A program made the position numbers and the translations under genes. Of a stretch of DNA of 47,517 nucleotides, positions 1-22,483 are shown one piece after another; positions within the stretch are counted from its first letter, which is position 1, and every line of letters starts with the position of its first letter. The notes beneath the pieces are model-generated. The model saw nothing but the letters and a program-made list of their open reading frames with translations, did no database searches and was not told the origin of the DNA. The stretch is from Crocinitomicaceae bacterium (GTDB lineage Bacteria; Bacteroidota; Bacteroidia; Flavobacteriales_D; Crocinitomicaceae): assembly GCA_044353285.1 (NCBI GenBank), contig JBILCD010000001.1, positions 1 to 47,517 of the forward strand, in the 5' to 3' direction.

Positions 1-60
1 TAAAGCTTAGGCAAGCAAAGGTTATAATAATGCTAAACTTAAAAGCAAACTGTTTAGTAA

Positions 61-522
61 TCATTTTATTTTTCTTATTTCTTTATGCATTATTTCCCCA
101 CCGCTCGTGGCTGTTTTTATCCCTAAATATATCGCAAAAATGGCTAATAATGCAAGTCCTATTGAAAGTGCATTCGAACGTTTGTTTTTTTTCCAAGAAA
201 GCCACATAGCAAGCAAGGAAATGGCTGATAACAAGTAGGTAACCAGTGAAAAGGTTTCTGCGTGTTCTTCGTGTTGATGAATAAACGTGCCGCTGGTTTT
301 TTCTAATCCCTCCACTATTTCCTCTGCACCCTCACCAGTATTCATAGAAAGGAATGCTGCTATCCCGGCAAATACAAAAAGAGAAAGTGCGAGTCGTTTC
401 ACCAAACCATTCTTAAATAGAAACCCGAATAACAACAAGAAACAACCCATTATTGGTAAAAAAATGGGTAGGTGATTAATAACTAGGTGAGAATAAGGTG
501 ACTTTAATGCATTTTCTAACAT
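61..522 (-). CDS. hypothetical integral membrane protein (about 4 hydrophobic helices, DUF2231-like N-terminus)
   Basis: 153-aa ORF with an ATG start. It has four long hydrophobic stretches. The N-terminal HLVINHLPIFLPI resembles the HPxxVHFPI-type signature I associate with DUF2231 membrane proteins. No catalytic motif recognised. Confidence 0.5.
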   Translation of the reverse strand: MLENALKSPYSHLVINHLPIFLPIMGCFLLLFGFLFKNGLVKRLALSLFVFAGIAAFLSMNTGEGAEEIVEGLEKTSGTFIHQHEEHAETFSLVTYLLSAISLLAMWLSWKKNKRSNALSIGLALLAIFAIYLGIKTATSGGEIMHKEIRKIK

Positions 523-693
523 CCTTCTTTTTGTGTACTAATGTAAGAAATTCTATTTAAATACCATATTTTTTACCTTTTTCTCCTTTCTTTTTCCTTA
601 ATTTGTGTGCCTATAAATCATTAATATGTTTTATTAAAGTAGTAATTCAATTAAGAAAAGCCCTCTCGCAACCATATATTTTATAGATTAATT

Positions 694-2157
694 ATGATGA
701 ATTTCGACTTCTTATTTACCAATTTATTTGATAAAAATATTGCCTTTTATATTGATGAAAAAGAATACACTTATTTAGAATTTAAACAGACCGTGTTTTC
801 TATATCAAATAGAATAAATGAACATAACATAGAGGGCCAAAACATTGGCGTTTATCTTTCTGATGACCTTTATTCCTATGCTGCATTTATTGCTATTTGG
901 TTAACTAAAAATGCATATGTCCCTATTCATCCTTCCTATCCGGATAACAGAAGGATTGATATAATCAATCAAGGGGAAATTAATTATGTGCTTGTAACTG
1001 ATTCCCACCCTATTTGTGTCGTTGGCCCTACCAATATTAACATTTCTTCGCTTCATCCTGCCGAAAAACTCTCCTTTCATTATCTCGAGCATATCAAAAG
1101 TGACTTAATGTATATTCTTTTTACCTCAGGCAGCACGGGGGCCCCAAAAGGAGTACAAATTAACTGTGGAAATTTATGTTCTTTTATGGACCATCTGACT
1201 TCTGTCAAAATGCCACTTACTGTTGGGGATCGGTTTCTTCAAATGTTTGAACTGACCTTTGATTTATCTGTCGTGTCATTTTTGTTTCCCTTACAACTTG
1301 GGGGAACCGTATACCATGTTGGAACCAACCAAGTAAAATATCTAGAAATCTACCGCCTTCTTGAAGAATATGCTATTAATTACGCCATCATTGTTCCTTC
1401 CGTTTTGGCTATGTTAAGGCCCTACTTTGAAGACATCGATTTGCCAAACTTAAAAGTTGTTGCATTAAGCGGGGAGGCCGTTCCTTTAAAACTTACCGAA
1501 GAATTTCAATTGTGTTGTCCAAATGCATCCTTTTTTAATTACTATGGCCCAACAGAATGCACCATTTTTTGTACAACATATGCCATCCCGAGGACTGAAA
1601 TAAAGTCCGCTAACGGAATTGTTTCTATAGGCAAACCCACTCTAAATAGCGTATATAAATTATGTGAATTACCAAAAGATGGAGAAGAACTGAATGCCAG
1701 CAGCGAACTGCACATTGGCGGCGAACAAGTTTCTATTGGTTATGTACAAAATGAAGAAATGAATAAAACGTTATTCTATAAAAATGGCGAAACGCCATAT
1801 TATAATACTGGCGATTTAGTCTTTTGCGATGACATGGGGTTTTTGTATTACCTAGGGAGAAAAGATCAACAAGTGAAAATTCAAGGATATCGTATCGAAC
1901 TAATGGAAGTTGAGCACCTGTGCAATAAGGCATTAGAAGCAACCTCGGTGGTGGTGGCTATTAAAAATGAAAAAGGATTTGACGAACTAATTCTTTTTGT
2001 GAAAGAGACCGAAAACAATTCAATTACAGAGAGGCTTAATCAGTATTTACCTAAATATATGGTTCCGAGTAGGATAATTCATATGAAAGACTTCCCGATG
2101 AATGAAAATGGTAAATTGGATAGAAAATCACTAAGAAACTCACTACTTAACTCATAG
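694..2157 (+). CDS. stand-alone AMP-forming adenylating enzyme, DltA / NRPS A-domain-like (carrier-protein ligase)
   Basis: Adenylation core motifs are present: LFTSGSTGAPKGV (A3), FDLSV (A4, as in DltA), NYYGPTEC (A5), YNTGDL (A7), GRKDQQVKIQGYRIEL (A8), NGKLDRK (A10). At 487 aa it is close to DltA in size and has no condensation or thioesterase domain. It is the first gene of a tightly coupled operon. Confidence 0.85.
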   Translation: MMNFDFLFTNLFDKNIAFYIDEKEYTYLEFKQTVFSISNRINEHNIEGQNIGVYLSDDLYSYAAFIAIWLTKNAYVPIHPSYPDNRRIDIINQGEINYVLVTDSHPICVVGPTNINISSLHPAEKLSFHYLEHIKSDLMYILFTSGSTGAPKGVQINCGNLCSFMDHLTSVKMPLTVGDRFLQMFELTFDLSVVSFLFPLQLGGTVYHVGTNQVKYLEIYRLLEEYAINYAIIVPSVLAMLRPYFEDIDLPNLKVVALSGEAVPLKLTEEFQLCCPNASFFNYYGPTECTIFCTTYAIPRTEIKSANGIVSIGKPTLNSVYKLCELPKDGEELNASSELHIGGEQVSIGYVQNEEMNKTLFYKNGETPYYNTGDLVFCDDMGFLYYLGRKDQQVKIQGYRIELMEVEHLCNKALEATSVVVAIKNEKGFDELILFVKETENNSITERLNQYLPKYMVPSRIIHMKDFPMNENGKLDRKSLRNSLLNS

Positions 2158-2158
2158 C

Positions 2159-2821
2159 ATGTATACGATTAGAGAGGCCAAAAAAGAAGATCAAGCATTT
2201 CTCATCTTGTCAATTATTGAAGCCGACAAAAGTTCGACTAATATTTGTTCCTATTGCAAACTCCTCGAAATTGAGGAATTGGAGTTTAAACAATTCCTCC
2301 ATGAAATTTTTGAAGAGGAAATCGCCGGATTTGAATTCTCCGTCGAAGCGTTTGTGGTAGTAGAACATGATGGCAAACCCATAGCAGCAAGCGCTTCTTG
2401 GATTGAGTCGGAGGAAGGCCTCCCATCGTGGCAACTAAGAATGGTTGCCTTAAGAACAGTGCTCCCTGCCATTCACATAACTAATCTGATGGGGAAATCG
2501 GCCATTTGTAATACAATTAATATTAAAAGAAGTGAAGGAACCCTGCAAATTGAGTCTGTTTTTATTAGTTCTGAACACCGCGGCAAGGAATTATTAAAAA
2601 AAATGATTGACTTTCACATAAAATTAAGGTCCAATAACACCAATAATATTGCCTCCATGGAATTATTAACCTATAATTCGAACCTATTGGCGGAAAAAGC
2701 GTACACGAAAATCGGATTTAAAAAAATAGAATACACAACTTCGTCGCACGAGGAAATAAAACACTTTTACCCATCTGATGGGATGACTCGTTGGCAAAAA
2801 ATTATTGAACATGGAAATTGA
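2159..2821 (+). CDS. GNAT-family N-acetyltransferase (substrate unknown)
   Basis: The layout is GNAT-like: IREAKKED N-terminus, FVVVEHDGKPIAASASW beta strands, a motif-A-like VFISSEHRGKELLKKMIDF and a motif-B-like NSNLLAEKAYTKIGFKKI. The ATG lies 1 nt after the stop of the adenylating enzyme. Confidence 0.6.
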   Translation: MYTIREAKKEDQAFLILSIIEADKSSTNICSYCKLLEIEELEFKQFLHEIFEEEIAGFEFSVEAFVVVEHDGKPIAASASWIESEEGLPSWQLRMVALRTVLPAIHITNLMGKSAICNTINIKRSEGTLQIESVFISSEHRGKELLKKMIDFHIKLRSNNTNNIASMELLTYNSNLLAEKAYTKIGFKKIEYTTSSHEEIKHFYPSDGMTRWQKIIEHGN

Positions 2822-3044
2822 AACTAAATTACAAGAGGTTTTTCGTGACGTTTTTCAAGATGAAACGTTGGTAATTTTACCCGAAATGACTGCTGGAGAT
2901 GTTGATAAATGGGATAGTATAACTCATTTGATAATGATTAGTAAAGTGGAGGAGGTTTTTAATGTCTCTTTCCGCTTAAAAGAATTAATCAAACTTAAAA
3001 ATGTTGGTGATTTAATTACTCTTTTAAAAGAAAAAACCGAGTAA
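2811..3044 (+). CDS. dedicated acyl/aminoacyl carrier protein (phosphopantetheine attachment Ser in KWDSITH)
   Basis: About 77 aa, acidic, with a D-S phosphopantetheinylation motif (DKWDSITHLIMISKVEEVF) placed as in carrier-protein helix II. The ORF track starts at TTG 2805; I prefer ATG 2811. It overlaps the GNAT stop (2819-2821) and its TAA abuts the next ATG (3045). Confidence 0.75.
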   Translation: MEIETKLQEVFRDVFQDETLVILPEMTAGDVDKWDSITHLIMISKVEEVFNVSFRLKELIKLKNVGDLITLLKEKTE

Positions 3045-4544
3045 ATGAATAGACAAAGCATACTTTTTATATTGAGTTTGTCTGTTTTTTTAATCACTTT
3101 ATCTTTTCTTTGGCCGAGTGAAGGTGTGATGATTGGCAAACTAAATCTCGTCTTTATAGATGGAGGGGGGATATTTAGCAAAGAAAAAAATAAATTCAAA
3201 GATCCTAGTCTTATCAAAACATCTTTGTCCGCAAATATTAATTCAAAAGACCATCTTAAATTAATAGAACATAAAGATCCTAGTGCGGTATCCTTGCATA
3301 AAAAATTAGATAGTCTTCGTGATAGATTAAATTTAAAACTGACTGAATCAGATTATAAAGAATCAATATTCTTAATTAATCCAGTGAAAAATAATACAAG
3401 TCCTTTGGATAATTTTTTTAAGTCTCTAGTGGATATTAAGCTTGTTGGGTCTGGAGTAATGCGTGTTGGGCACTATGGAGACTCTCAAATTGAAGGCGGC
3501 CGTATGACTAACACCTTGAGGGATTTGTTTCAAGGATATTTTGGAGGTGGAGGTGTGGGCTATGTGCCCTTGGACGACATAACAAGTCCTGTCTCCTTCT
3601 CGAGAACCGTATCGGGTAATTGGACTCGATTCGCAGCAAGTAAAGGACGGCCCAAAGGGGGAAGCTTGGGACCTGGAGGGCTTGCATTCAAATACAACTC
3701 AGGACAAAACCAAACTAAAAAATTAACGAGTGAATCAGGCGCGGCGAATTTTACCTCATGGGCTTCTGGAAATGTCACTTTGAATTTATCAAAATCATAT
3801 TCCAACATGATGATTTGGTATGGTTACGGACAAAAAAACTCGATCCTTAGCGTTTTTTCCGGAAGCAACAAAATTGGGGAGGTCAAGTTAGAAGATAATG
3901 GCGTTTTTAATGCTGTTAAGGTGCCATTATCTACTTCCTCTACTAATATACAATTACGTTTTAGTGGACCATCTCCCTTTTTATATGGCGCCACTTTTGA
4001 TGAATCGAAGGGGGTGCAATTTGATAATTATGGGGTTCGGGGGCATTCGGGAGAGGGATTCCTAACTATAAATCAAGACGATCTTTCTGGCATGTTTCAG
4101 AAAATAAATAATAAACTGGCCATCGTTCAGTTTGGAGGTAATGTAACTCCTTATTTAAAGACCGAGGCATCCCTCAAAAAAATGAAGGATATTTATCAAA
4201 ATATTTATCTTCGGTTTAAGAAAGCGTTGCCCGAAGGAAGCGTATTAATAGTAAGTGTTAATGATGTTTCTAGATTAATAAAAGGGGGGTATGAATCATA
4301 TCCAAATATTAGTTCTCTAAGGTATATTCAAAGAGAATTAGCAATCGAAAATAATTGTGCCTTCTTTGATTTATATCAATTTATGGGCGGAGAATCCTCA
4401 ATTAATGTTTGGAGCGAAGCAAATTTAGGGGCTAAGGATGGGCATTTTTCAACAACCGGTAGGGATATTGTTGCTAAAGAGCTCTTTAAAGCGTTGATGT
4501 ACGAATTCAATAATTACAAAACTAGGCATGACATTAAAGAATAA
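3045..4544 (+). CDS. membrane-anchored SGNH/GDSL-family hydrolase or acyltransferase (DltD/PatB/AlgX-like role possible)
   Basis: There is an N-terminal hydrophobic anchor, ILFILSLSVFLITLSFLW. SGNH blocks: I VGHYGDSQIEGG, II YGVRGHSGEG, III VQFGGNV, V AKDGHFSTTGRDIVAKEL (D-x-H spacing, one residue shorter than the canonical DxxH). Confidence 0.6.
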   Translation: MNRQSILFILSLSVFLITLSFLWPSEGVMIGKLNLVFIDGGGIFSKEKNKFKDPSLIKTSLSANINSKDHLKLIEHKDPSAVSLHKKLDSLRDRLNLKLTESDYKESIFLINPVKNNTSPLDNFFKSLVDIKLVGSGVMRVGHYGDSQIEGGRMTNTLRDLFQGYFGGGGVGYVPLDDITSPVSFSRTVSGNWTRFAASKGRPKGGSLGPGGLAFKYNSGQNQTKKLTSESGAANFTSWASGNVTLNLSKSYSNMMIWYGYGQKNSILSVFSGSNKIGEVKLEDNGVFNAVKVPLSTSSTNIQLRFSGPSPFLYGATFDESKGVQFDNYGVRGHSGEGFLTINQDDLSGMFQKINNKLAIVQFGGNVTPYLKTEASLKKMKDIYQNIYLRFKKALPEGSVLIVSVNDVSRLIKGGYESYPNISSLRYIQRELAIENNCAFFDLYQFMGGESSINVWSEANLGAKDGHFSTTGRDIVAKELFKALMYEFNNYKTRHDIKE

Positions 4545-6141
4545 TTCAAGTTTGCTTTTCTTTCTTTTAGCTGTTAATGTCTGCTTTTCTCAACAGCAAG
4601 TGTCTGACACTGCGTCTTTAAATAAACTCGTTAAATATTCCGTTTCTCCGAATTTTGTTGACTTCAAAACAAATTATTTTGAATGGCAAAACCCGTTATC
4701 TGTTGGGGGTTTTTATGATAAATTGAAAAAAGGAGACAATGTAACAATCTTACATATCGGCGATTCTCACCTGCAATTCGATTTAGGAGCAGGAACGACA
4801 AGAAAAAGACTTCAGCAAGTATTTGGCAGTAGGGGGAGAGGGCTCGTTTTTCCTTATGCTGCTGCGGGAACACACTCTACTTATGACTATTCAAGCGCTT
4901 CTTTTGGAAACTGGAGAAGTAATAAAAATGTCAGTAAAAACATTAGCTATAAACTTGGCGTCTCTGGTATCACTATAAATACACGAGATTCCCTTGCCGG
5001 ATTTTCGTTTTCTTTCTACAACAGTGACCTTCGAGAAGAAGAAATTAATTTAGCCGTCCTATTTTTTAAAAATACTGACTCTTCTTTTAATATTAAATAC
5101 CGATTAAACAAAAATGATGACTGGATTTTTGTCAACGTTCATAATTCAACTAACAAAAATTGTGTGCAAATTCCTCTCGCAGCCTCTAAATTTGATCGAT
5201 ACTTTGAGTTACGCTGTGTTAAATCAGACTCTACACAAAAAGAATTTGAGTGTTCAGGTGTTTCTTTTGAATCAACAGAAAAAAAAGGCGTTCTATATCA
5301 CAGCGTTGGAATTAATGGGGCGCGAATTTTGAGCTTTTTGAAGCAGGAATTAAACGACGAGCAACTAAAAACTCTTAATCCTGACATTATTATTTTTGAT
5401 CTGGCAGCAAATGATTTAGCTTTTGGGGCTTTTGATTCTATTGGTCTTAGAAAATCCCTTCTGCGTTCCCTAAACGTTATTCGAAGCTCACTGCCTAATG
5501 CGTCCATATTAATAGCAAATATTCAAGACATTAGTGTAAAGGAAAGATCAGTAATAAATGCCATGTATTATTCTGCTTTTTTGAGAAAATTCTCAAAAAC
5601 AAATCAGATTGCTTTTTATGATTACTATGACATTGCTGGGGGTAAAGGCTCAATAAATAAATGGCTTAAAGCCGGGCTTTGTAAATCGGACAAATGTCAT
5701 TTATCTAGAAGTGGTTACATTTTGAAAGGAGAACTCTTTGCTAATGCTCTGCTTAACTCTTTTGGAAATTATTTAATGCATCCTAATGATTCGTTTTTGC
5801 TAATACGAAAGCCTATTGTCATCGAAATTAAAATTAAAGATTCTCTCAATACTTCTGTCCTCGTTAGCAAAGAAATCCCTATAAAAAAAGATGTTGTCGT
5901 GAAAGAGAAGGCCCCCGTAAAACCTGTTCCAGTAGTCGTTAAACCGGTTCCGGCAGTTGTTAAACCTGTTCGAGCAGTCGTTAAACCGAAAAAGCCGGAG
6001 CCGAAATACTATGTTGTAAAAAAAGGTGATAACTTATCACGAATAGCGAATAAATACAAGACGTCCGTAAAGGCACTTCAGCTTAAAAATAAATTAAAAA
6101 CTGATTTTTTACAAATTGGTCAAAAGCTACTAATACCATGA
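4528..6141 (+). CDS. secreted SGNH/GDSL-family protein with a Pro/Val/Lys repeat linker and a C-terminal LysM domain
   Basis: The signal peptide is MTLKNNSSLLFFLLAVNVCFSQQ. SGNH blocks: I ILHIGDSHLQ, II SVGINGARI, III IIFDLAANDL, V SDKCHLSRSGYILKGELFA (DxxH). A KPVPxVV x3 linker is followed by a LysM domain. It overlaps the upstream gene by 17 nt. Confidence 0.65.
   Translation: MTLKNNSSLLFFLLAVNVCFSQQQVSDTASLNKLVKYSVSPNFVDFKTNYFEWQNPLSVGGFYDKLKKGDNVTILHIGDSHLQFDLGAGTTRKRLQQVFGSRGRGLVFPYAAAGTHSTYDYSSASFGNWRSNKNVSKNISYKLGVSGITINTRDSLAGFSFSFYNSDLREEEINLAVLFFKNTDSSFNIKYRLNKNDDWIFVNVHNSTNKNCVQIPLAASKFDRYFELRCVKSDSTQKEFECSGVSFESTEKKGVLYHSVGINGARILSFLKQELNDEQLKTLNPDIIIFDLAANDLAFGAFDSIGLRKSLLRSLNVIRSSLPNASILIANIQDISVKERSVINAMYYSAFLRKFSKTNQIAFYDYYDIAGGKGSINKWLKAGLCKSDKCHLSRSGYILKGELFANALLNSFGNYLMHPNDSFLLIRKPIVIEIKIKDSLNTSVLVSKEIPIKKDVVVKEKAPVKPVPVVVKPVPAVVKPVRAVVKPKKPEPKYYVVKKGDNLSRIANKYKTSVKALQLKNKLKTDFLQIGQKLLIP
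5920..5982 (+). repeat. three tandem imperfect 21-nt repeats (aaaccKgttcSRgYagtYgtt) encoding KPVPxVV, plus a partial fourth copy
   Basis: Direct reading gives 5920-5940 aaacctgttccagtagtcgtt, 5941-5961 aaaccggttccggcagttgtt and 5962-5982 aaacctgttcgagcagtcgtt, followed by aaaccgaaaaagccg. The repeats are in frame with the 4528-6141 CDS. Confidence 0.9.
6007..6138 (+). other. LysM peptidoglycan-binding domain (C-terminal 44 aa of the 4528-6141 protein)
   Basis: YYVVKKGDNLSRIANKYKTSVKALQLKNKLKTDFLQIGQKLLIP fits the LysM pattern (Y.VkkGDtL..IA.ky...v..L...N.l....l..GQ.L.IP). Confidence 0.8.
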
Positions 6142-7619
6142 ATATTGACTTCTTAATTTCAAGTTTAATGTATGACCCGAAAAATCCGATGTTATTTCAA
6201 TCGGTATTATTTTTTGGTTCGTTTAGTATTTTCTACCTGATTTATTCCTTTTTTAATAACGAAGTAAAGGTTAGAAATGCTTTGCTTTTGGCATTTAGTT
6301 TATTCTTTTACTATAAAATAAGTGGCGGATTTGTTTTGGCGCTTATATTTATGGCTAGTGTAGACTATCTAGTTGCTAGAAATCTCCCTCATGCTAAAAG
6401 CGAAAGAAAAAAAATACTCCTGCTTTCCCTATCTCTTTTTATTAATGTTGGGGGATTACTCTTTTTTAAATACACTTATTTTTTCCTTGATGTATATAAT
6501 TCCGTTTCAGGATCAACGGTTTCTTTGGCCATGAAAATAATTCAACCCATCGGAATAAGTTATTTCGTTTTCAAAAGCTTGGGCTATGTTCTTGATGTTA
6601 AACGGGAAATGATTGAAGAGCCCGAAAAAAATTATGCTAACTATTTATTGTACGTATCATTTTTTCCAAATATTCTTGCGGGACCAATATCAAAGGCTCG
6701 AGACCTCCTTCCTAAATTTAAAGAAAAAAGTGTGGTTGATAAAAAAATCATTAACGCTGCGGTATTTATGATAATAATTGGCCTTATTAAAAAAATTGCG
6801 ATTGCAGATTATTTAGCTGCTAATATGGTCGGGCGAGTGTTTGAAAGCCCTCAGTTTTTTTCGGGGGTTGACTTATTTATGGCTTGCTATGGAGGACTCA
6901 TTCAATTGTTTTTTGATTTTTCAGGATATACAGACATTGTTGTAGGGCTTGCCTTATTGATGGGGTTTCAGATTAAAGGTAATTTTAATCAGCCATTTAA
7001 AGCAAAAAACATCACTGACTTTTGGAGGCGATGGCACATTTCTCTATATGAATGGTTGTCTGAATACATTTACCAACCCCTTGCTTTTATTTGGCGCAAG
7101 CAGAAATTGTTAGGCACCTTAATGGCGGTTATTATCACCTTTTTAATTTCTGGTATTTGGCACGGCCCTAATTGGGTTTTTATTGTTTGGGGTAGCTTAC
7201 ATGGGCTAATGATTTGTTGGGATGTGCTAACATCGAAATACAGAAGTAAACTCGCTACTTTAGGTGGGAAATATTATTCTTTTTTTAGTGTGTTCCTCAC
7301 CTTTCACTTTATTGTTTTTTCAGCCGTCTTATTAAAATCTCCCTCTTTTAACTATACGATTGATTACTACAGCCAGCTGTTGACAACATTCGACCCCAAG
7401 ATGCTCATTAAATGGTTTGAAATATATTCATGGCCATTTGGGGTAATGATTATTGGCCTCGCCCTGCAGTTCCTGCCTCTAAATTTCTATTCCAAACTTG
7501 AAAATAATTTTGTAAAAACCCCGCTAATACTTTCGTCTATAATCCTTGTAATTATTATTTTTTCGCTATACCAACTTTCGTACATGGAAGCGATGCCCTT
7601 TTTATATATTGTTTATTAG
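6138..7619 (+). CDS. MBOAT-family membrane-bound O-acyltransferase (DltB/AlgI/PatA-like)
   Basis: 493 aa, polytopic. The MBOAT signature region is ITDFWRRWHISLYEWLSEYIYQPL, containing the conserved His, followed by SGIWHGPNW. The start overlaps the upstream stop in ATGA (6138-6141). Confidence 0.85.
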   Translation: MNIDFLISSLMYDPKNPMLFQSVLFFGSFSIFYLIYSFFNNEVKVRNALLLAFSLFFYYKISGGFVLALIFMASVDYLVARNLPHAKSERKKILLLSLSLFINVGGLLFFKYTYFFLDVYNSVSGSTVSLAMKIIQPIGISYFVFKSLGYVLDVKREMIEEPEKNYANYLLYVSFFPNILAGPISKARDLLPKFKEKSVVDKKIINAAVFMIIIGLIKKIAIADYLAANMVGRVFESPQFFSGVDLFMACYGGLIQLFFDFSGYTDIVVGLALLMGFQIKGNFNQPFKAKNITDFWRRWHISLYEWLSEYIYQPLAFIWRKQKLLGTLMAVIITFLISGIWHGPNWVFIVWGSLHGLMICWDVLTSKYRSKLATLGGKYYSFFSVFLTFHFIVFSAVLLKSPSFNYTIDYYSQLLTTFDPKMLIKWFEIYSWPFGVMIIGLALQFLPLNFYSKLENNFVKTPLILSSIILVIIIFSLYQLSYMEAMPFLYIVY

Positions 7620-7698
7620 TTCTTGATTACGGCGGTTTTAAGTTCTGTTGGATGGATATATTTTGTTGGCTATAGTACCTTTTTTTCTTAAAATAGAT

Positions 7699-7706
7699 TA
7701 GTTTTG
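7699..7706 (+). promoter_or_regulatory. Bacteroidota-type -7 promoter box TAGTTTTG (TAnnTTTG), 4 nt upstream of the asnS ATG (leaderless candidate)
   Basis: Exact match to TAnnTTTG in the 91-nt gap upstream of asnS. This is a motif match only. Confidence 0.35.
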
Positions 7707-7710
7707 TGGC

Positions 7711-9159
7711 ATGAAACGCATTAAAATTAAGCATGTTTTAAGTAGTGATGGGAAAGAGCTCATTGGACAACGCATTACCGTTAAAGGCTGGGTAAGAGCT
7801 TTTAGAAGCAATCGATTTATTCAAATTAATGATGGCTCATGTTTGGCTAATATTCAAGCAGTGATTGATTTCGAAAAATACGATGGCGACATTATAAAGC
7901 AAATTACCACTGCTGCGGCAGTTTCTGTTTCTGGCTTATTAATCGCCTCTATCGGATCGGAGCAATCCCTTGAATTACAAGTGGAGGAAATAGAAATTCT
8001 TGGTGCTGCTCATCCTGATGATGTGCAAAAAACAATCTTGCAACCAAAAAAACATAGCTTAGAATTATTAAGAGAACAGGCCCATTTAAGGTTTCGAACC
8101 AATACCTTTAGTGCTGTTTTTAGAATTCGCCATGCCGTAGCTTATGCTATACATCATTATTTTCACAGTAATGGATTTTTTTACCTCCACACACCCATTA
8201 TTACAGGTTCCGATGCTGAGGGCGCAGGAGAGATGTTTAGAGTTTCTACTCTTGATCCTAAATTCCCCCCGCTAAACGAAGCTGGAGAAGTTGATTATAA
8301 ACAAGACTTTTTTGGCAAGCCTGTTAACCTTACTGTTTCTGGTCAATTAGAGGCAGAGCTTGCTGCCCTAGCACTTGGACAAGTATATACTTTTGGACCT
8401 ACCTTTCGTGCCGAAAACTCAAATACTTCTCGGCACCTTGCTGAATTTTGGATGATTGAACCTGAGGTTGCATTCAATGACCTGACTGATAACATGGACC
8501 TCACCGAAGATTTCTTGAAATATCTTTGCTCGTTTGTTGTCGAAAATTGTAAAGAGGATCTATCCTTCCTCAACCAACGTGAGCAGCAAGAGCAAAGTCA
8601 GAAACCCCTTAACGAACGTAACGAGTTGAGCTTAGTTGAACGCTTAAAATTCGTTATTGAAAACCCTTTTAAAAGACTTACCTACTCTGAAGCAATTGAG
8701 GTGCTTTTAAATTCAAACCACCACAAAAAGAAAAAATTTCAATATCCTATTGCGTGGGGAATTGACCTTCAAAGTGAACACGAACGTTATTTAGTTGAAA
8801 AAGAATTTAAGTGTCCTGTTATACTTTCTAATTATCCCGCTGAGATAAAAGCGTTTTACATGCGTCAAAATGACGACAATAAAACCGTTTCTGCTATGGA
8901 TGTTTTATTTCCAGGTATTGGAGAAATCGTAGGTGGCTCTCAGCGCGAAGAGCGATATGATGTTTTATTGGAGAAGTGCAAGGCGTTTAAAATTCCGGAA
9001 GAGGAGTTGTGGTGGTACCTTCAAACGCGAAAATTAGGCACTGTGCCACATGCTGGTTTTGGCCTAGGATTTGAGCGCATGATTATGTTTGTCACCGGGA
9101 TGAGCAACATTAGAGATGTTATTCCATTTCCGAGGACCCCATTAAATGCTTCTTTTTAA
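7711..9159 (+). CDS. asnS: asparagine--tRNA ligase
   Basis: Class IIb aaRS with an N-terminal OB fold (ITVKGWVRAFRSNRFIQINDGS), motif 2 FRAENSNTSRHLAEFWMIEPE and motif 3 GFGLGFERM. Its 482 aa length is typical of AsnRS. Confidence 0.95.
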   Translation: MKRIKIKHVLSSDGKELIGQRITVKGWVRAFRSNRFIQINDGSCLANIQAVIDFEKYDGDIIKQITTAAAVSVSGLLIASIGSEQSLELQVEEIEILGAAHPDDVQKTILQPKKHSLELLREQAHLRFRTNTFSAVFRIRHAVAYAIHHYFHSNGFFYLHTPIITGSDAEGAGEMFRVSTLDPKFPPLNEAGEVDYKQDFFGKPVNLTVSGQLEAELAALALGQVYTFGPTFRAENSNTSRHLAEFWMIEPEVAFNDLTDNMDLTEDFLKYLCSFVVENCKEDLSFLNQREQQEQSQKPLNERNELSLVERLKFVIENPFKRLTYSEAIEVLLNSNHHKKKKFQYPIAWGIDLQSEHERYLVEKEFKCPVILSNYPAEIKAFYMRQNDDNKTVSAMDVLFPGIGEIVGGSQREERYDVLLEKCKAFKIPEEELWWYLQTRKLGTVPHAGFGLGFERMIMFVTGMSNIRDVIPFPRTPLNASF

Positions 9160-9163
9160 CATT

Positions 9164-10600
9164 ATGGCACTAAAGCAATATTTATCGCAAAAAACAGAAC
9201 AGCGTTTATCGCCGCAACAAATTCAATTAATGAAATTATTGCAGGTGCCAACCCTAGAATTAGACCAGCGCATTAAACAGGAATTAGAAGAAAATCCTGC
9301 TCTTGAAGAAGGGACAGAATCTGACGATGATGATTTTGAGCAAGAAGATGACGAGGATGGAGAGGAAGAGGAATTTGATATCTCAGATTATTTTGATGAG
9401 GATGTTGCCGACTACAAAACACAAGCGAATAACACCTCCAAAGACGATGAAGAACGAGTAGTTCCATTATCAGGAGAAACAAGTTTTCAAGAAAAACTTA
9501 GTGAACAACTACATTTAATTGCCCTTGATGACAACCAATTTCTCATTGCTGATATTTTAATCGGAAATCTCGACGAATCCGGTTATTTGAATAGAAATCT
9601 CAACGCTTTAGTTGATGATCTTGCCTTTTCGCTTAATATCGAAACAACTGAAGCAGAGATTGAGGTTGTTCTTTTGCTCCTTCAATCACTCGATCCTGCA
9701 GGCATTGGCGCAAGAAATTTAAGAGAGTGTTTATTAATTCAAATTAATCGACGGCAAGACAAATCATTATCACGACAAAGGGCTAAAATAATCTTAGAAC
9801 TTTATTTTGAAGAATTTACAAAGAAACACTATGAGAAAATTGCTAAGAAATTAAACATTAGCGATCAAGAATTAAAATCATCAATAGATGAAATATTAAA
9901 ATTAAACCCGAAACCTGGTGGGTCAACGAAAGATTCAGCAAAAAACCACCAACAGATTATCCCCGATTTTATTTTAGTAGAAAATGAAGGGGAACTTGAG
10001 CTTACTCTTAATAGCCGTAATGCCCCTGAATTAAAAATTAGTAAAGAATACCAGAACATGTTACGTTCTTATTCTGAGGGTGCTAAAACTTCAAAAGCTG
10101 ATAAACAAGCGGTAACCTTTGTAAAACACAAATTAGATAGTGCGCTTTGGTTTATTGATGCCATTAAACAAAGACAACAAACGCTATTATTAACAATGAA
10201 TGCCATCATGCGGTATCAAGAAGCCTTTTTTCTGGCTGGTGACGACACGAAGCTAAAACCTATGATATTAAAGGATATTGCAGAAATTGTTTCTCTGGAT
10301 ATCTCGACCGTATCACGAGTGGCAAATAGTAAATATGTGCAGACAAATTTTGGGGTTTTTTCATTAAAATATTTCTTCTCTGAATCTTTATCTACCGATT
10401 CAGGAGAAGAGGTGTCAACTAGGGAAGTGAAGCAAATTTTATTAGATGCTATAGAAAGTGAGGATAAGCGAAACCCTCTTCCAGACGAAAAACTCATGGC
10501 CCTATTAAACGAGAAAGGATATAATATTGCGCGTAGGACTGTGGCTAAATATCGTGAACAGCTAAACCTTCCTGTAGCTCGTATGCGCAAGAAACTTTAA
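9164..10600 (+). CDS. rpoN: RNA polymerase sigma-54 factor
   Basis: The N-terminus MALKQYLSQKTEQRLSPQQIQLMKLLQ is region I. An acidic region II follows (DDDDFEQEDDEDGEEEE). The C-terminal RpoN box is ARRTVAKYREQL. I prefer ATG 9164, 4 nt after the asnS stop, over ORF-track start 9146, which overlaps asnS. Confidence 0.93.
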   Translation: MALKQYLSQKTEQRLSPQQIQLMKLLQVPTLELDQRIKQELEENPALEEGTESDDDDFEQEDDEDGEEEEFDISDYFDEDVADYKTQANNTSKDDEERVVPLSGETSFQEKLSEQLHLIALDDNQFLIADILIGNLDESGYLNRNLNALVDDLAFSLNIETTEAEIEVVLLLLQSLDPAGIGARNLRECLLIQINRRQDKSLSRQRAKIILELYFEEFTKKHYEKIAKKLNISDQELKSSIDEILKLNPKPGGSTKDSAKNHQQIIPDFILVENEGELELTLNSRNAPELKISKEYQNMLRSYSEGAKTSKADKQAVTFVKHKLDSALWFIDAIKQRQQTLLLTMNAIMRYQEAFFLAGDDTKLKPMILKDIAEIVSLDISTVSRVANSKYVQTNFGVFSLKYFFSESLSTDSGEEVSTREVKQILLDAIESEDKRNPLPDEKLMALLNEKGYNIARRTVAKYREQLNLPVARMRKKL

Positions 10601-19858: not shown

Positions 19859-21159
19859 TTCACGGTAAATATAGCGTCTAAAGCGTCACAAAACCCAATT
19901 ACTGATGCGTCTAAAATAGCCTCGCTGTGTGCTTGTGATATAAACCCCACTTCATACCCACTCGGACCAATATAAATGCCTCGCGCGAGTAATTCGGCGT
20001 GCAACAAATTGAAGTTGCTCATGTCTGGATTAATTTGATCGGCAGAGGTGATTCGTTTGTTATCTTCAAATGACAACCAAAAAATAGATCCTATACTCAC
20101 TAATTTAAATGGATAAGATGAATCGCTAGCGTGTTTATTTATTGCCTGAACAAAACCCAAGGTTTTGACTGATAATTCTTCATAAAATCCGGGGCGTAGG
20201 CAATTGCTTAATTGAGCAATCCCCGCTGCCATAGCAACCGGATTTCCGGAAAGTGTTCCGGCTTGGTAAACGGGGCCTTCAGGAGATACGTTCGACATCA
20301 ACTCATTACTTGCGCCATAAGCACCTACAGGTAATCCTCCCCCCATAATTTTACCATAAGTTACAATATCAGGAATAATATCATAAAAAGCTGCAGCTCC
20401 GCCGAAAGCAACTCTAAACCCCGATATAACCTCATCGAAAATTAAAAGTATGTTTAGTTTCGTACACAGCGCTCGAAGGGAAAGAAGAAATGTTTTATCT
20501 TGAAGAAGTAAGCCATTATTGGCCGGTATTGGTTCTATAATTACCGCGGCTATTTCATGAGCTTGGGCATGTAGAATCTCGCTCAGTTTAGATAAGTCGT
20601 TTAGTGGAAGTACGATGGTTTCATTTGCCAAAGACTCCGGAACGCCCGCGCTGGATGATGTTCCAAACGTTATAAGACCGCTTCCCGCCTTTACCATTAA
20701 AGAGTCAACATGACCATGGTAACAGCCTTCGAATTTCACCAATTTAGTTTTTCCGGAGGCACCTCTCGCTAATCGTATAGCGGACATAACTGCTTCTGTA
20801 CCCGATGATACAAACCTTAATTTGTCTATGAATGGAATATTAGTCAGAATGAGTGCCGCTAATTCATTTTCTTTTTTTGTTGGCGCTCCAAAACTTGCCC
20901 CATTAGCCAAAGCAGCAACGGTCCCCTCGAAAATATCCGGGTGATTGTGTCCCAAAATCAAAGGCCCCCAACTGCAACAAAAATCAGTGTATTTATTTCC
21001 ATCTTCATCCCAAAGATAGGCTCCGTCCCCTTTCTGAATAAAAAGTGGCGTCCCTCCTACTGACCTAAATGCCCGCACCGGTGAATTTACGCCTCCTGGA
21101 AAATAGGTTTTTGCTTTTTCAAACAACTGTTTAGATATAGACCTGTTAAGTTCGCTCAT
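19855..21159 (-). CDS. hemL: glutamate-1-semialdehyde 2,1-aminomutase
   Basis: FPGGVNSPVRAF, the class-III aminotransferase fold and the PLP-Lys region TYGKIMGGG are present. Length is 434 aa. Confidence 0.95.
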   Translation of the reverse strand: MSELNRSISKQLFEKAKTYFPGGVNSPVRAFRSVGGTPLFIQKGDGAYLWDEDGNKYTDFCCSWGPLILGHNHPDIFEGTVAALANGASFGAPTKKENELAALILTNIPFIDKLRFVSSGTEAVMSAIRLARGASGKTKLVKFEGCYHGHVDSLMVKAGSGLITFGTSSSAGVPESLANETIVLPLNDLSKLSEILHAQAHEIAAVIIEPIPANNGLLLQDKTFLLSLRALCTKLNILLIFDEVISGFRVAFGGAAAFYDIIPDIVTYGKIMGGGLPVGAYGASNELMSNVSPEGPVYQAGTLSGNPVAMAAGIAQLSNCLRPGFYEELSVKTLGFVQAINKHASDSSYPFKLVSIGSIFWLSFEDNKRITSADQINPDMSNFNLLHAELLARGIYIGPSGYEVGFISQAHSEAILDASVIGFCDALDAIFTVK

Positions 21160-21168
21160 TTTCTTGTT

Positions 21169-21176
21169 TATCTTTG
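21169..21176 (+). promoter_or_regulatory. -7 promoter box TATCTTTG for kynU
   Basis: Exact TAnnTTTG match 32 nt upstream of ATG 21209. It lies inside the N-terminal extension proposed by the ORF track, which argues for the 21209 start. Confidence 0.4.
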
Positions 21177-21183
21177 TGGTTTA

Positions 21184-21191
21184 CAAAAATA
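21184..21191 (-). promoter_or_regulatory. -7 promoter box TATTTTTG (minus strand) for the hemL-carotenoid operon
   Basis: Plus-strand CAAAAATA is the reverse complement of TAnnTTTG. It lies 24 nt upstream of the hemL ATG (21159). Confidence 0.4.
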
Positions 21192-21208
21192 ACAAATTTC
21201 AACGGCTT

Positions 21209-22483
21209 ATGTTTTTAGATTTAACGCTTGAGTTTGCAAAATCTCTTGATCAAAATGACCCACTAAAGTCCTTTAGGCAAGATTTTCTTTTCCCAACATT
21301 TCATGAAAAAGAGGTGCGCTACTTTACTGGAAACTCACTGGGGCTCCAGCCTAAAAATGCAAGAAAATATATCCTTGAAGAACTTGATGATTGGGAAAAG
21401 TTTGGGGTTGAGGGCCATTTTATGTCCCGTAGACCTTGGTACTCTTACCATGAAAACCTGACGGATATGATGGCAAAAATTGTTGGGGCTAAACCTCTTG
21501 AAGTCGTGGTAACGCATTCATTAACAACAAACCTACACTTGCTGTTGGTGTCTTTTTTTCAGCCAAAAGGGAAAAGGACAAAAATTCTATGTGAAGCTAA
21601 AGCCTTTCCAAGCGATCAGTATGCGCTTTCCTCCCAAATTGATTTTCATGGCCTTAATGCTGAAAATTTAGTTGAAATTGGCCCGCGAGAAGGGGAACAC
21701 ATTATCAGTGAAGAAGATATTATCGAAAAAATAAATCAATTGGGTGATGAATTAGCCTTAGTGATGATTGGAGGGGTTAATTATTACACTGGACAGCTGT
21801 TCGATATGGAGGCTATTTGTGCTGCTGGGCATGCTGTGGGGGCGAAAGTCGGTTTTGACTTGGCGCATGCCGCAGGTAATGTTTCACTATCTCTTCACGA
21901 TTGGGGGGTGGATTTTGCAGCGTGGTGTGGATATAAATACCTTAATTCGTCGCCAGGAGGGGTTTCTGGTTTTTTTGTTCATGAAAGACATGCTAATAAC
22001 ACTGCATTACCTCGGTTTGCAGGTTGGTGGGGTCACAACAAAGAAAGTCGTTTTGAAATGAAGCCGGGATTCCAACCAATTTCCGGTGCTGAAGGCTGGC
22101 AACTGAGCAATGCCCCTATATTCGGAATGGCTGCTCAACTTGCTTCACTCGAGGTTTTTGAGCGTGCAGGAATGGATAGAATTTCAGAAAAAAGAACGCT
22201 CCTAACCAGCTATTTAGAATGTGTCATTTTAAATGTTTCTGAAAAAAACAAAGCCCTTTGTTCATTTGAAATAATTACCCCAAAAGACCCTAAAAGAAGG
22301 GGGTCTCAATTGTCTATTCTATTACATGGAAAGGGAAAAGAAGTGTATGATGCGCTGACAAATAGAGGTGTGATTGCCGACTGGCGAGAACCCAACGTTA
22401 TTCGTGTTGCTCCGGCTCCCTTGTACAATAGTTTTGAAGATTGTTATTGGTTTGGTCAGCACCTCGAAGCGGCTATTCAATAA
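21209..22483 (+). CDS. kynU: kynureninase
   Basis: LDQNDPLKSFRQDFLFP...YFTGNSLGLQPK is the typical kynureninase N-terminus. The PLP-Lys region CGYKYLNSSPGG is also present. The ORF-track start 21164 is TTG, so I revised the start to ATG 21209. Confidence 0.9.
   Translation: MFLDLTLEFAKSLDQNDPLKSFRQDFLFPTFHEKEVRYFTGNSLGLQPKNARKYILEELDDWEKFGVEGHFMSRRPWYSYHENLTDMMAKIVGAKPLEVVVTHSLTTNLHLLLVSFFQPKGKRTKILCEAKAFPSDQYALSSQIDFHGLNAENLVEIGPREGEHIISEEDIIEKINQLGDELALVMIGGVNYYTGQLFDMEAICAAGHAVGAKVGFDLAHAAGNVSLSLHDWGVDFAAWCGYKYLNSSPGGVSGFFVHERHANNTALPRFAGWWGHNKESRFEMKPGFQPISGAEGWQLSNAPIFGMAAQLASLEVFERAGMDRISEKRTLLTSYLECVILNVSEKNKALCSFEIITPKDPKRRGSQLSILLHGKGKEVYDALTNRGVIADWREPNVIRVAPAPLYNSFEDCYWFGQHLEAAIQ

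Follow-up and report, generated by a model that had tools for sequence, protein, structure and literature searches.

The Dlt pathway comprises DltA, DltC, DltB, DltX and DltD in Firmicutes, with orthologues in Bordetella (dra) and Dickeya. It combines a carrier-protein donor with a separate tyrosine shuttle, DltX (Anderson et al. 2025, PMC12148441), whereas in the non-Dlt MBOAT-SGNH pathways, which 'lack a similar carrier protein', the donor is an acyl-CoA and the shuttle is fused (PMC12148441). In Bacteroidetes, an O-acetylpeptidoglycan (OAP) cluster of the form ape1b-ape1c-pat was predicted by Weadge, Pfeffer and Clarke in 2005 (PMC1199599), its B. thetaiotaomicron proteins being NP_811595, NP_811594 and NP_811593. 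The peptidoglycan of Bacteroides and Porphyromonas is 27-69% O-acetylated and the cluster order is ape1b, ape1c, pat; the O-acetylation was measured and the role of the genes predicted (PMC1199599).

The window analysed here, a stretch of 47,517 nucleotides, comes from a marine Bacteroidota bacterium. The Bacteroidota background proposed in an earlier note, made from the sequence alone, agrees with the taxonomy of all close relatives and with the T9SS and BamH-like genes in the window. The same note described a tightly packed operon of six same-strand ORFs (Table 1), and the ORF coordinates bear this out in every particular: the A-domain and GNAT genes are separated by 1 nt (2157/2159), the GNAT and carrier genes overlap by 11 nt, the carrier and SGNH1 genes abut (TAA-ATG), SGNH1 and SGNH2 overlap by 17 nt, and SGNH2 and MBOAT overlap in ATGA. 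Every motif quoted there was found in the translations. We interpret this operon as a probable carrier-fed MBOAT-SGNH acylation machine, derived from an OAP cluster and an A-GNAT-carrier module, that would transfer an amino-acid-derived group, possibly N-acetylated, to what is likely peptidoglycan; from the sequence evidence, we assign this reading a probability of roughly 0.55.

Table 1. Coordinates of the operon and associated features in the window.
Feature	Position (nt)	Strand	Remarks
Upstream intergenic region	523-693	+	Likely promoter/regulatory region of the operon; sole sizeable non-coding gap 5' of gene 1
A-domain enzyme gene	694-2157	+	487 aa, ORF
GNAT gene	2159-2821	+	220 aa, ORF
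Carrier protein gene	2811-3044	+	77 aa, ATG start; in-frame TTG at 2805
SGNH1 gene	3045-4544	+	ORF
SGNH2 gene	4528-6141	+	ORF
SGNH2 LysM domain	6010-6138 (aa 495-537)	+	Pfam LysM, 8.6e-16
MBOAT gene	6138-7619	+	493 aa, ORF

A sister strain (L090) retains intact copies of all six genes, and dN/dS values between the window and this strain are 0.06-0.24 for five of the six, indicating purifying selection. The intergenic region upstream of the first gene is nearly invariant between the two strains, whereas the adjoining coding sequence diverges. Because the six genes remain intact in L090 and the arrangement recurs in independent lineages (vide infra), the operon is not a chance assembly. In Pfam searches of the six proteins, the AMP-binding, LysM and MBOAT families were clear, GNAT was at threshold, and PP-binding and Lipase_GDSL_2 were below cutoff.

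The operon shares the three-gene backbone, gene order and phylum of the OAP cluster, along with the fused FxYxxF tail of its MBOAT. However, the OAP cluster lacks an adenylating enzyme, a GNAT and a carrier, all three of which are present in the window; the OAP-cluster MBOAT has Y287/N330, whereas the MBOAT in the window lies in a sister clade and has F287/A330, and the SGNH2 of the window carries an added LysM domain. The earlier note proposed that two logics are fused at this locus, and the union of a carrier-bound donor with a PatA/AlgI-type MBOAT-SGNH set is supported; the backbone itself was already predicted as the OAP cluster in 2005, and what is new is the donor module placed upon it.

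In its AF2 model (pLDDT 86.6), SGNH1 is an Ape1b-like SGNH protein that has a TM helix at residues 3-22 as membrane anchor and a beta-sandwich inserted after motif I; it is proposed to be the acyl transferase and the partner of the MBOAT. Its top Foldseek matches are the peptidoglycan O-acetylesterases Ape1 8GLD and 4K3U (TM 0.75-0.83, E about 1e-22), and its profile matches Ape1 4k3u with an E value of 3e-35. The motifs are GDS145-147, GGN364-366 and D465-x-H467, the first and last of which are invariant in 29 sequences. In the form GDSQ plus D-G-H, with one-residue spacing, they are invariant across the family, three-gene loci included, whereas the Ape pattern is GDS(H/F) and Dx(V/T)H; this D-x-H in place of the canonical D-x-x-H counts against our interpretation. 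SGNH2 appears from its sequence to be a secreted Ape1c-like SGNH protein, with a signal peptide, and possibly a lipoprotein via Cys19. It matches the same Ape1 profile (1.8e-16) and contains GDS78-80, GIN261-263 and D388xxH391, its GDSH and D-K-C-H being close to the Ape pattern. In both proteins these motifs would supply the Ser-His-Asp triad of the extracytoplasmic SGNH partner in the Anderson et al. model (PMC12148441). The LysM domain that had been placed at its C-terminus is confirmed (Table 1), and is preceded by a Pro/Val/Lys-rich linker that differs by 14 aa in the sister strain. Lipase_GDSL_2 is below the Pfam cutoff for both proteins. There is no Pfam match to DltD (PF04914) in the operon, and the 50 best Foldseek matches listed do not include DltD. 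The two SGNH proteins described earlier and their motifs are real, and both are Ape1-like and not DltD-like.

The product of the first gene is a predicted stand-alone amino-acid adenylation enzyme, functionally DltA-like. It matches Pfam AMP-binding (5.5e-48), its PDB matches are NRPS A-domains and DltA, and it groups with amino-acid A-domains and DltA rather than with fatty-acyl ligases. The best NCBIfam models are DltA and AA-adenyl-dom, but the score falls below the cutoff of both the DltA equivalog TIGR01734 (276 bits, cutoff 559.85, or about 560) and NF003417 (273 bits, cutoff 476). Extraction of the specificity code by alignment to GrsA and DltA, as had been suggested, gave DLVIASYIFK, in which Asp235 and Lys517 are kept and which differs from the DltA code DLMT[ML]CTVAK at 7 of 10 positions. 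No assignable substrate matched this code, and loci with an A-GNAT fusion have another code, DLWLLCVIFK; both observations count against the preferred interpretation.

The GNAT has a confident model (AF2 pLDDT 92) with a canonical acyl-CoA-binding fold, and Foldseek returns generic single-domain N-acetyltransferases. Pfam GNAT families are barely at threshold, although all 11 of the 11 family members match. The gene lies between those for the A-domain and the carrier in nearly all loci and is fused to the former in L088, P0147 and P0164. The GNAT appears to belong to a small family (214 clusters at E<=1e-30 in a set of 1.84 billion representatives) that is specific to the donor module and essentially confined to its context. 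The carrier scores 18.5 bits against PP-binding, below the Pfam cutoff of 20.8, and matches PDB 2LML, a putative ACP with the motif WDSLSH (E 1e-15). Its phosphopantetheine-attachment residue, Ser36 (codon 2916-2918), lies in W-D-S-I-T-H and is invariant in 23 loci. No DltC chain is among its PDB matches at E<=10, and no DltC NCBIfam model matches.

The MBOAT (Pfam MBOAT, 3e-29) scores 184 bits against the DltB model TIGR04091, for which the cutoff is 375, and in an NJ tree its clade is sister to the OAP-cluster MBOATs, with a very long branch to DltB. Across an alignment of 71 MBOATs that includes DltB, W299-H300 and W341-H342 reach at least 95% conservation. The protein ends in the hexapeptide F488-L-Y490-I-V-Y493 (nt 7599-7616), with a final Tyr where FXYXXF has Phe, and a fused FxYxx[FY] tail is found in all complete MBOATs of related loci (e.g. 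PFIYIQF, PFIYMVY); DltB lacks this Tyr motif and two further C-terminal helices. There is no separate DltX microprotein; within positions 1-8200 of the window only the MBOAT ORF ends in F.Y..[FYW]. This is a PatA-type protein with its own fused Tyr shuttle, and it is no DltB orthologue on either score or tree.

Two residues near the catalytic His separate MBOATs by donor context. Carrier-linked SGNH1-type MBOATs form one clade in the NJ tree, sister to the unlinked MBOATs; carrier-linked MBOATs have F287 in 16 of 17 cases and N330 in none of 17, position 330 being A, S or G, a state that resembles DltB. Y287/N330 is found in 58 of 61 unlinked MBOATs, and the split holds even inside a single Aquimarina locus. 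That F287 and A/S/G330 track the carrier gene and match DltB supports the replacement of acetyl-CoA by aminoacyl-S-carrier as the donor, although the signature represents only about 3-4 independent evolutionary transitions, which counts against the interpretation, as does L010, where the MBOAT has the carrier-type signature yet no A-domain or carrier gene lies within 10 kb.

The three-gene SGNH1-SGNH2-MBOAT module is found in at least 593 species genomes, in this order and on a single strand in the window and about 60 related loci, and is present in Bacteroides MAG loci (L042, L077, L082). An SLT+LysM lytic transglycosylase gene lies directly upstream in 19 loci and is absent from that position in carrier-linked loci. 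In L077 the cation-efflux gene named in PMC1199599 is not within 4 kb upstream; a lytic transglycosylase is there instead. The donor module lies upstream of the backbone in a small subclade. The full set of six genes occurs in seven loci (the window, L090, L007, L008, L009, L088, with A and GNAT fused, and L113), and there are five-gene loci (L092 and the P0004 contig), four-gene variants and loci with other gene orders (L102, L108, L111, L112). The GNAT is absent from L001, L011, L087 and L112, SGNH2 is missing from some carrier-linked loci, and SGNH1 is present in every variant that has any SGNH protein. The core is the A-domain, carrier, SGNH1 and MBOAT, with SGNH2 and the GNAT optional: donor module and backbone recur together in relatives, as the earlier note required, but not always as six genes. 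L001 and L011 have A-domain, carrier, SGNH1 and SGNH2 genes but no MBOAT within 10 kb, which counts against our interpretation. Cultured Flavobacteriia also have A-(GNAT)-carrier modules paired with other MBOATs in their polysaccharide loci, so the hybrid logic extends beyond this operon.

Other known systems share parts of this design. The Dlt operon also has an A-domain enzyme and a small carrier adjoining an MBOAT and an SGNH-fold protein, and has the same F/A states at MBOAT positions 287 and 330; however, the proteins in the window pass no Dlt equivalog threshold, their Tyr shuttle is fused rather than on DltX, and they include an additional GNAT and Ape1-type SGNH proteins in a diderm host without teichoic acid. 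PatA/PatB/Ape1 of Neisseria and Campylobacter (PMC12148441) share the catalytic His, the C-terminal Tyr shuttle to a periplasmic SGNH protein and the Ape1 fold, but the operon lacks a PatB (DUF459) homologue, its presumed transferase being Ape1-like, and its MBOAT is predicted to draw on an acyl-S-carrier protein, whereas the donor of PatA is acetyl-CoA. The AlgI/AlgJ/AlgF/AlgX system resembles the operon in pairing an MBOAT with two SGNH-like proteins, of which one is anchored in the membrane and the other is periplasmic and bears a carbohydrate-binding module, but uses an AlgX-family SGNH protein and acetyl-CoA with no A-domain, carrier or GNAT, in contrast to the Ape1/GDSL_2 SGNH proteins and donor module seen here. 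In Vibrio cholerae, lipid A glycylation by AlmEFG offers a Gram-negative case in which a DltA-like ligase and a carrier aminoacylate an envelope component, as is proposed here; unlike the operon, it has no MBOAT or SGNH protein, and AlmG is a cytoplasmic-face member of the lysophospholipid-acyltransferase family. A literature search found no described equivalent of the carrier-linked MBOAT/SGNH operon and no published function for it, in keeping with the earlier statement that no system with such a gene set is known to have been characterised experimentally.

The presence of an A-domain enzyme, a GNAT and a carrier alongside what is in relatives an O-acetylation cluster suggests that the transferred group is probably derived from an amino acid rather than being acetate. 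Beyond the gene content, folds, motifs, co-conservation, purifying selection and residues correlated with donor type, all of which the analysis shows, we infer which acyl group is moved, in which direction each transfer runs and what the acceptor is. The A-domain would adenylate a small alpha-amino acid and load it as a thioester on the phosphopantetheine at carrier Ser36, as its conserved catalytic motifs, Asp235, Lys517 and small hydrophobic pocket suggest. The GNAT may then N-acetylate the carrier-bound aminoacyl group with acetyl-CoA; this step, the weakest, is proposed because some loci fuse A to GNAT and because the fold is that of a generic N-alpha-acetyltransferase. By analogy with the published Tyr-shuttle mechanism of PatA and DltX (PMC12148441), the MBOAT, with His342 as its catalytic residue, would carry the acyl group across the inner membrane to its own Tyr490 in FLYIVY. 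Ser147 of SGNH1 would receive it and esterify the acceptor, likeliest a peptidoglycan glycan hydroxyl such as MurNAc O-6, and the LysM-tethered, Ape1c-like SGNH2 may serve, like AlgX, as a second transferase or, like Ape1, as an esterase that trims the modification. This interpretation draws on the OAP backbone, the match of both SGNH proteins to Ape1, the co-conserved donor module, the 287/330 signature, the fused FxYxx[FY] tail without DltX, the lytic transglycosylase upstream in 19 loci, Asp235 and Lys517, and purifying selection.

Since the backbone is that of the OAP cluster, peptidoglycan is the leading candidate acceptor; however, the lack of an upstream lytic transglycosylase in carrier-linked loci and the cassettes in polysaccharide loci suggest that it may not be the acceptor. 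The same machinery could instead modify a capsule, exopolysaccharide or LPS/O-antigen polysaccharide, which we consider rather unlikely. Cassettes of A-domain, carrier, MBOAT and partner do occur amid glycosyltransferase, EpsG and pyruvyl-transferase genes in Aquimarina and Carboxylicivirga (A-domains about 40% identical), L112 and L001 adjoin polysaccharide genes, and LysM also binds other GlcNAc polymers. However, the operon in the window sits among the housekeeping genes asnS, rpoN and glmS rather than among glycosyltransferases; the MBOAT partners in the polysaccharide loci are unannotated proteins of ~300 aa, unlike the Ape1-type SGNH proteins here; the OAP cluster, with its adjoining lytic transglycosylases, forms the sister clade; and in L112 a glucosaminidase-domain gene is directly upstream.

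It is improbable that this is an ordinary acetyl-CoA-dependent OAP cluster next to an unrelated A-GNAT-carrier module serving, for instance, cytoplasmic synthesis of N-acyl amino acids or lipids. The SGNH1-SGNH2-MBOAT module does occur without an A-domain or carrier in hundreds of genomes, the MBOAT retains a fused Tyr motif, as CoA users typically do, and the A-domain and carrier occur in L001 and L011 with no adjoining MBOAT, but the overlapping and abutting genes leave no space for independent expression, the trio adjoins MBOATs of two different clades, with at least three gene orders, MBOAT residues 287 and 330 switch with the carrier to match DltB, and the GNAT family is essentially restricted to this context. 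We would likewise give low odds to the GNAT using acyl-CoA to charge the carrier thiol with acetyl or another acyl group, in the manner of a GNAT-type loading domain, or acetylating a different substrate, such that the carrier delivers acetate or two alternative acyl groups. Although the acyl-CoA-binding fold is canonical, the ancestral system transfers acetate and four loci dispense with the GNAT, an A-domain with all its catalytic cores under purifying selection would then be redundant, the A-GNAT fusions suggest a shared intermediate, and the nearest folds are amine N-acetyltransferases. Finally, a true dlt operon (DltABCD) from Firmicutes, D-alanylating a teichoic-acid-like polymer, is largely refuted: DltA and DltB are the best NCBIfam models for the A-domain and MBOAT, and some databases automatically annotate homologues as D-alanine--poly(phosphoribitol) ligase, but all scores are far under the equivalog cutoffs, the MBOAT nests with those of Bacteroidota OAP clusters, a DltD-family match, DltC similarity and a DltX microprotein are all lacking, and the specificity code is not that of DltA.

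Returning to the carrier-fed acylation machine, a carrier-protein donor combined with a fused shuttle in Gram-negatives crosses the two-way division of MBOAT-SGNH pathways (PMC12148441). If this is correct, MBOAT donor specificity has been switched within a single lineage, with residues 287 and 330 as two candidate specificity positions, and an ester substituent new to Gram-negative bacteria is predicted on their cell wall or surface glycans. The idea is open to experiment in Aquimarina and Carboxylicivirga, cultured bacteria that have related cassettes. More tentatively, and with some doubt, the peptidoglycan glycan strands of some marine and environmental Bacteroidota may be esterified with an amino acid, perhaps in N-acetylated form, in place of acetate, via a previously unrecognised class of MBOAT that takes an acyl-S-carrier protein, keeps a fused Tyr shuttle and would be an evolutionary link between PatAB and Dlt; F287/A330 as against Y287/N330 may then predict the donor of bacterial MBOATs generally, among them the MBOATs that cultured Flavobacteriia have in polysaccharide loci. 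The predicted modification might alter surface charge, recognition by phages or hosts, and how well cells resist lysozyme and lytic transglycosylases.

The six ORFs of the operon follow one another with the junctions claimed in the earlier note, namely a gap of 1 nt, an overlap of 11 nt, an abutting TAA-ATG, an overlap of 17 nt and an ATGA overlap, and all of the motifs quoted there were found in them. The Pfam families anticipated for the six proteins were also matched. Further evidence backs the weak matches among these: in the PDB, the carrier hits 2LML, an acyl carrier protein (E 1e-15), and Ape1, a peptidoglycan O-acetylesterase, is matched both by SGNH1 used as a profile (E 3e-35) and by SGNH2 (E 1.8e-16).

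ORFs of the operon and their Pfam matches
ORF	Position	Strand	Pfam match
A-domain	694-2157	+	AMP-binding, 5.5e-48
GNAT	2159-2821	+	GNAT families
Carrier	2811-3044	+	PP-binding, weak
SGNH1	3045-4544	+	Lipase_GDSL_2
SGNH2	4528-6141	+	Lipase_GDSL_2; LysM, 8.6e-16
MBOAT	6138-7619	+	MBOAT, 3e-29

All six genes are intact in the sister strain L090, a nearly identical marine metagenome contig. The dN/dS between the window and L090, computed ungapped, is 0.06-0.24 for five of the six genes; SGNH2 was compared by protein alignment instead, and its sole difference is a 14-residue (42-nt) indel in a repetitive linker, which leaves the gene intact. This linker (window positions 5890-5990, residues ~455-490) is rich in Pro, Val and Lys (VVKPVP-like), precedes the LysM domain and is 14 residues shorter in L090; as a spacer of variable length, it may set the distance bridged between membrane and peptidoglycan. 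The intergenic stretch that precedes the operon (523-693) is near-invariant relative to L090 and may represent a conserved regulatory element; the adjoining small membrane-protein gene carries several substitutions. A scan for sigma-70 promoters and terminators gave counts no higher than those in shuffled sequence, sigma-70 being the wrong promoter model for Bacteroidota. Directly downstream, asnS (7711-9159) shares 14 nt with rpoN (9146-10600), and no convincing terminator was seen in the 91 nt between the MBOAT gene and asnS. The diderm Bacteroidota background proposed earlier holds, since T9SS-sorted and BamH-like proteins occur among the housekeeping genes of the window and all close relatives are Bacteroidota. 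One protein of 779 aa (36609-38948, minus strand), which carries a T9SS type A sorting domain, is encoded in a region with a GC content of 0.46-0.48, against ~0.37 in the rest of the window, and a strongly negative GC skew; its gene may be a horizontal acquisition.

The SGNH1-SGNH2-MBOAT backbone is a known kind of system, though one assigned by bioinformatics alone, because its arrangement matches that described in 2005 for the OAP clusters of B. thetaiotaomicron, B. fragilis and P. gingivalis (Weadge, Pfeffer and Clarke 2005, PMC1199599). SGNH1 relatives are found in at least 593 genomes, nearly all of them Bacteroidota, in a scan of species-representative genomes, and in about 70 of 80 retrieved loci the three genes stand without an adenylating enzyme or carrier. 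The three genes also occur beyond the Bacteroidota, in an Ignavibacteriaceae MAG (L010) and on the chromosome of the gammaproteobacterium Glaciecola amylolytica (L079). In 19 three-gene loci (L077, at 8380-9978, and 18 others, including L012, L015, L019, L066 and L082), an MltD-like lytic transglycosylase with an SLT domain and LysM repeats is encoded by the gene that directly precedes SGNH1 in the same orientation, which is consistent with a role of the three-gene backbone at the peptidoglycan. This transglycosylase is present in no carrier-linked locus, where LysM is carried by SGNH2 instead. The cation-efflux gene reported upstream of the OAP cluster (PMC1199599) was not seen in the 4 kb upstream of the L077 cluster.

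The AlphaFold model of SGNH1 (pLDDT 86.6) has a transmembrane helix at its N terminus, and a beta-sandwich splits its SGNH domain. In Foldseek it is by far most similar to the Ape1 proteins 8GLD and 8GKD from C. jejuni and 4K3U from N. meningitidis (target TM-scores 0.75-0.83), and neither DltD nor PatB nor AlgX/AlgJ appears among the top matches. Descent from DltD was ruled out on this result and on the absence of a DltD Pfam match, and PatB (only E 0.11), AlgX and AlgJ were likewise dismissed as the nearest SGNH relatives.

The window MBOAT is best matched by the DltB model, yet scores only 184 bits against a cutoff of 375, and a neighbor-joining tree places it among Bacteroidota MBOATs, on a long branch from DltB. 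All complete MBOATs from these loci end in F-x-Y-x-x-[F/Y] (PFIYFQF in the three-gene loci, PFLYIVY in the window). This tail is the "acyl shuttle" hexapeptide, in which the PatA tyrosine is auto-acetylated before the acyl group is handed to an SGNH partner; in the Dlt pathway the hexapeptide resides on a separate microprotein, DltX (PMC12148441). No DltX-like ORF was found in positions 1-8200 of the window. Given the fused tail, the sub-cutoff score and the tree placement, the MBOAT is classified from its sequence as PatA-type and not as a DltB orthologue.

The A-domain, a stand-alone NRPS-type enzyme for amino-acid adenylation, has DltA and the generic amino-acid adenylation domain as its top models, both below their equivalog cutoffs; models for fatty-acyl ligases score much lower, so that a grouping with those enzymes, which the earlier note had named as a possible refutation, was not found. 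Alignment to GrsA-PheA and PDB DltA sequences gives the 10-residue specificity code DLVIASYIFK, preserved in the close clade, compared to DLMT[ML]CTVAK in DltA; it matches none of the verifiable specificity codes. The retention of Asp235 and Lys517 argues for an alpha-amino acid substrate, and the bulky hydrophobic lining of the pocket argues for a small side chain. In L113, the complete six-gene operon is followed after ~3 kb by an ORF (20649-21569) that encodes the N-terminal domain of alanine racemase; it could hint at D-alanine as the substrate, or could be a coincidental housekeeping gene.

The carrier is not DltC-like, and its serine is invariant within W-[D/T/N]-S-x-x-H across 23 loci. 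The GNAT model (pLDDT 92) is a canonical single-domain acetyl-CoA N-acetyltransferase, which rules out a Fem-type aminoacyl transferase; the folds closest to it are those of small-molecule and N-alpha-acetyltransferases. The family is small: a search of 1.84 billion representatives gave 214 clusters at E<=1e-30. Family members of at least 36% identity have an A-domain and a carrier on either side wherever the contig is long enough, and some are fused with the A-domain into one polypeptide. Apart from these ~716-aa fusions, an exhaustive GNAT profile search detected other larger proteins, P0232 (440 aa) and P0294 (392 aa), one of which has two matched stretches, suggesting a tandem GNAT.

All six genes were found together in seven loci (the window, L090, L007, L008, L009 and L113, plus L088, in which A is fused to GNAT), which bears out the co-conservation asked of the proposal, with GNAT and SGNH2 variable elsewhere. 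No cultured organism was found to carry the six-gene form. A five-gene form without SGNH2 occurs in L092 and on the P0004 contig, and in L111, L104 and L099 the A-GNAT-CP genes are convergent with the MBOAT gene. L112 contains A-CP-SGNH1-like-MBOAT adjoining a glucosaminidase-domain gene and, as in the window, asnS lies nearby. In L001 and L011, A, CP, SGNH1 and SGNH2-LysM are present, but no MBOAT gene lies within 10 kb. From the gene content of these variants, the core is A, CP, SGNH1 and MBOAT, and GNAT and SGNH2 are frequent accessories.

In the neighbor-joining tree, the carrier-linked MBOATs that accompany SGNH1 group in a single clade whose sister is that of the unlinked OAP MBOATs, and two positions near the catalytic His342 separate the two sets. 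A carrier gene lies within 5.5 kb of 17 distinct MBOATs; F287 is present in 16 of them and A, S or G at 330 in all 17, while Y287/N330 is found in 58 of the 61 MBOATs that lack a carrier gene. DltB shares the carrier-linked states, the rule extends to a second MBOAT clade, and within one Aquimarina locus the F/S state is confined to the MBOAT that adjoins A-CP. The cases that still depart from the rule are a truncated ORF, an MBOAT beside a GNAT on a contig of 2 kb, and L010, whose MBOAT is carrier-type (F287/S330), yet A and CP are absent within 10 kb; its donor may be encoded elsewhere. With only about three to four independent transitions, the correlation is supportive, but not conclusive, of a carrier feeding the MBOAT.

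From the gene content, folds, motifs, conservation and residue correlation, we infer an acyl group, a series of transfers and an acceptor. The A-domain would activate a small amino acid and load it onto the Ser36-phosphopantetheine of the carrier. In the weakest step of the scheme, GNAT would N-acetylate the tethered aminoacyl group; there is a slim chance that it loads or modifies something else. His342 of the MBOAT would then move the acyl group onto the enzyme's own Tyr490 at the periplasmic face, from which the membrane-anchored, Ape1b-like SGNH1 would take it on Ser147 and esterify the acceptor. SGNH2, tethered to peptidoglycan by LysM via its linker, would be a second transferase or a trimming esterase.

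OAP ancestry, Ape1-type folds and LysM all point to peptidoglycan as the most probable acceptor. A polysaccharide acceptor is unlikely, but related donor cassettes do sit in polysaccharide loci: A-domains with ~40% identity, accompanied by a carrier of this kind, adjoin other MBOATs and unannotated ~300-aa partners within the polysaccharide-biosynthesis loci of the cultured Flavobacteriia Aquimarina and Carboxylicivirga, which suggests aminoacylated exopolysaccharides or capsules in these species. These cassettes, each with a 79-aa carrier, are at L087:10001-14144 (Aquimarina sp. AD10) and L089:7407-17591 (Carboxylicivirga sp. N1Y90); the ~300-aa partners have no Pfam or PDB sequence matches, and both loci hold extra MBOAT and partner pairs without a donor module. 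It is improbable that the operon is a plain acetyl-CoA OAP cluster beside an unrelated module, because the overlap of the genes, the recurrence of the association in differing gene orders and the switch of MBOAT residues are hard to reconcile with it. A bona fide dlt operon is virtually excluded, since every component fails the test of membership in its Dlt family.

No published description was found of a Bacteroidota dlt-like system, or of a PatA-type MBOAT with Ape1-type partners to which an adenylating enzyme and a carrier are coupled, in keeping with the earlier view that the gene set has no known characterized equivalent; a 2025 mechanistic paper is explicit that carrier proteins are absent from non-Dlt MBOAT/SGNH pathways (PMC12148441). 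The fusion of two logics postulated from the sequence is retained, at that level, as a Dlt-like donor module beside a PatA-type MBOAT and SGNH proteins. Dlt likewise combines an adenylating enzyme and a carrier with an MBOAT, whereas here the shuttle is fused and the SGNH partners are Ape1-type; the backbone is shared with the OAP cluster, to which the A-domain, GNAT and carrier are added. The operon is a hybrid of the two recognized architectures, and MBOAT positions 287 and 330 provide a signature of donor type that is open to testing.
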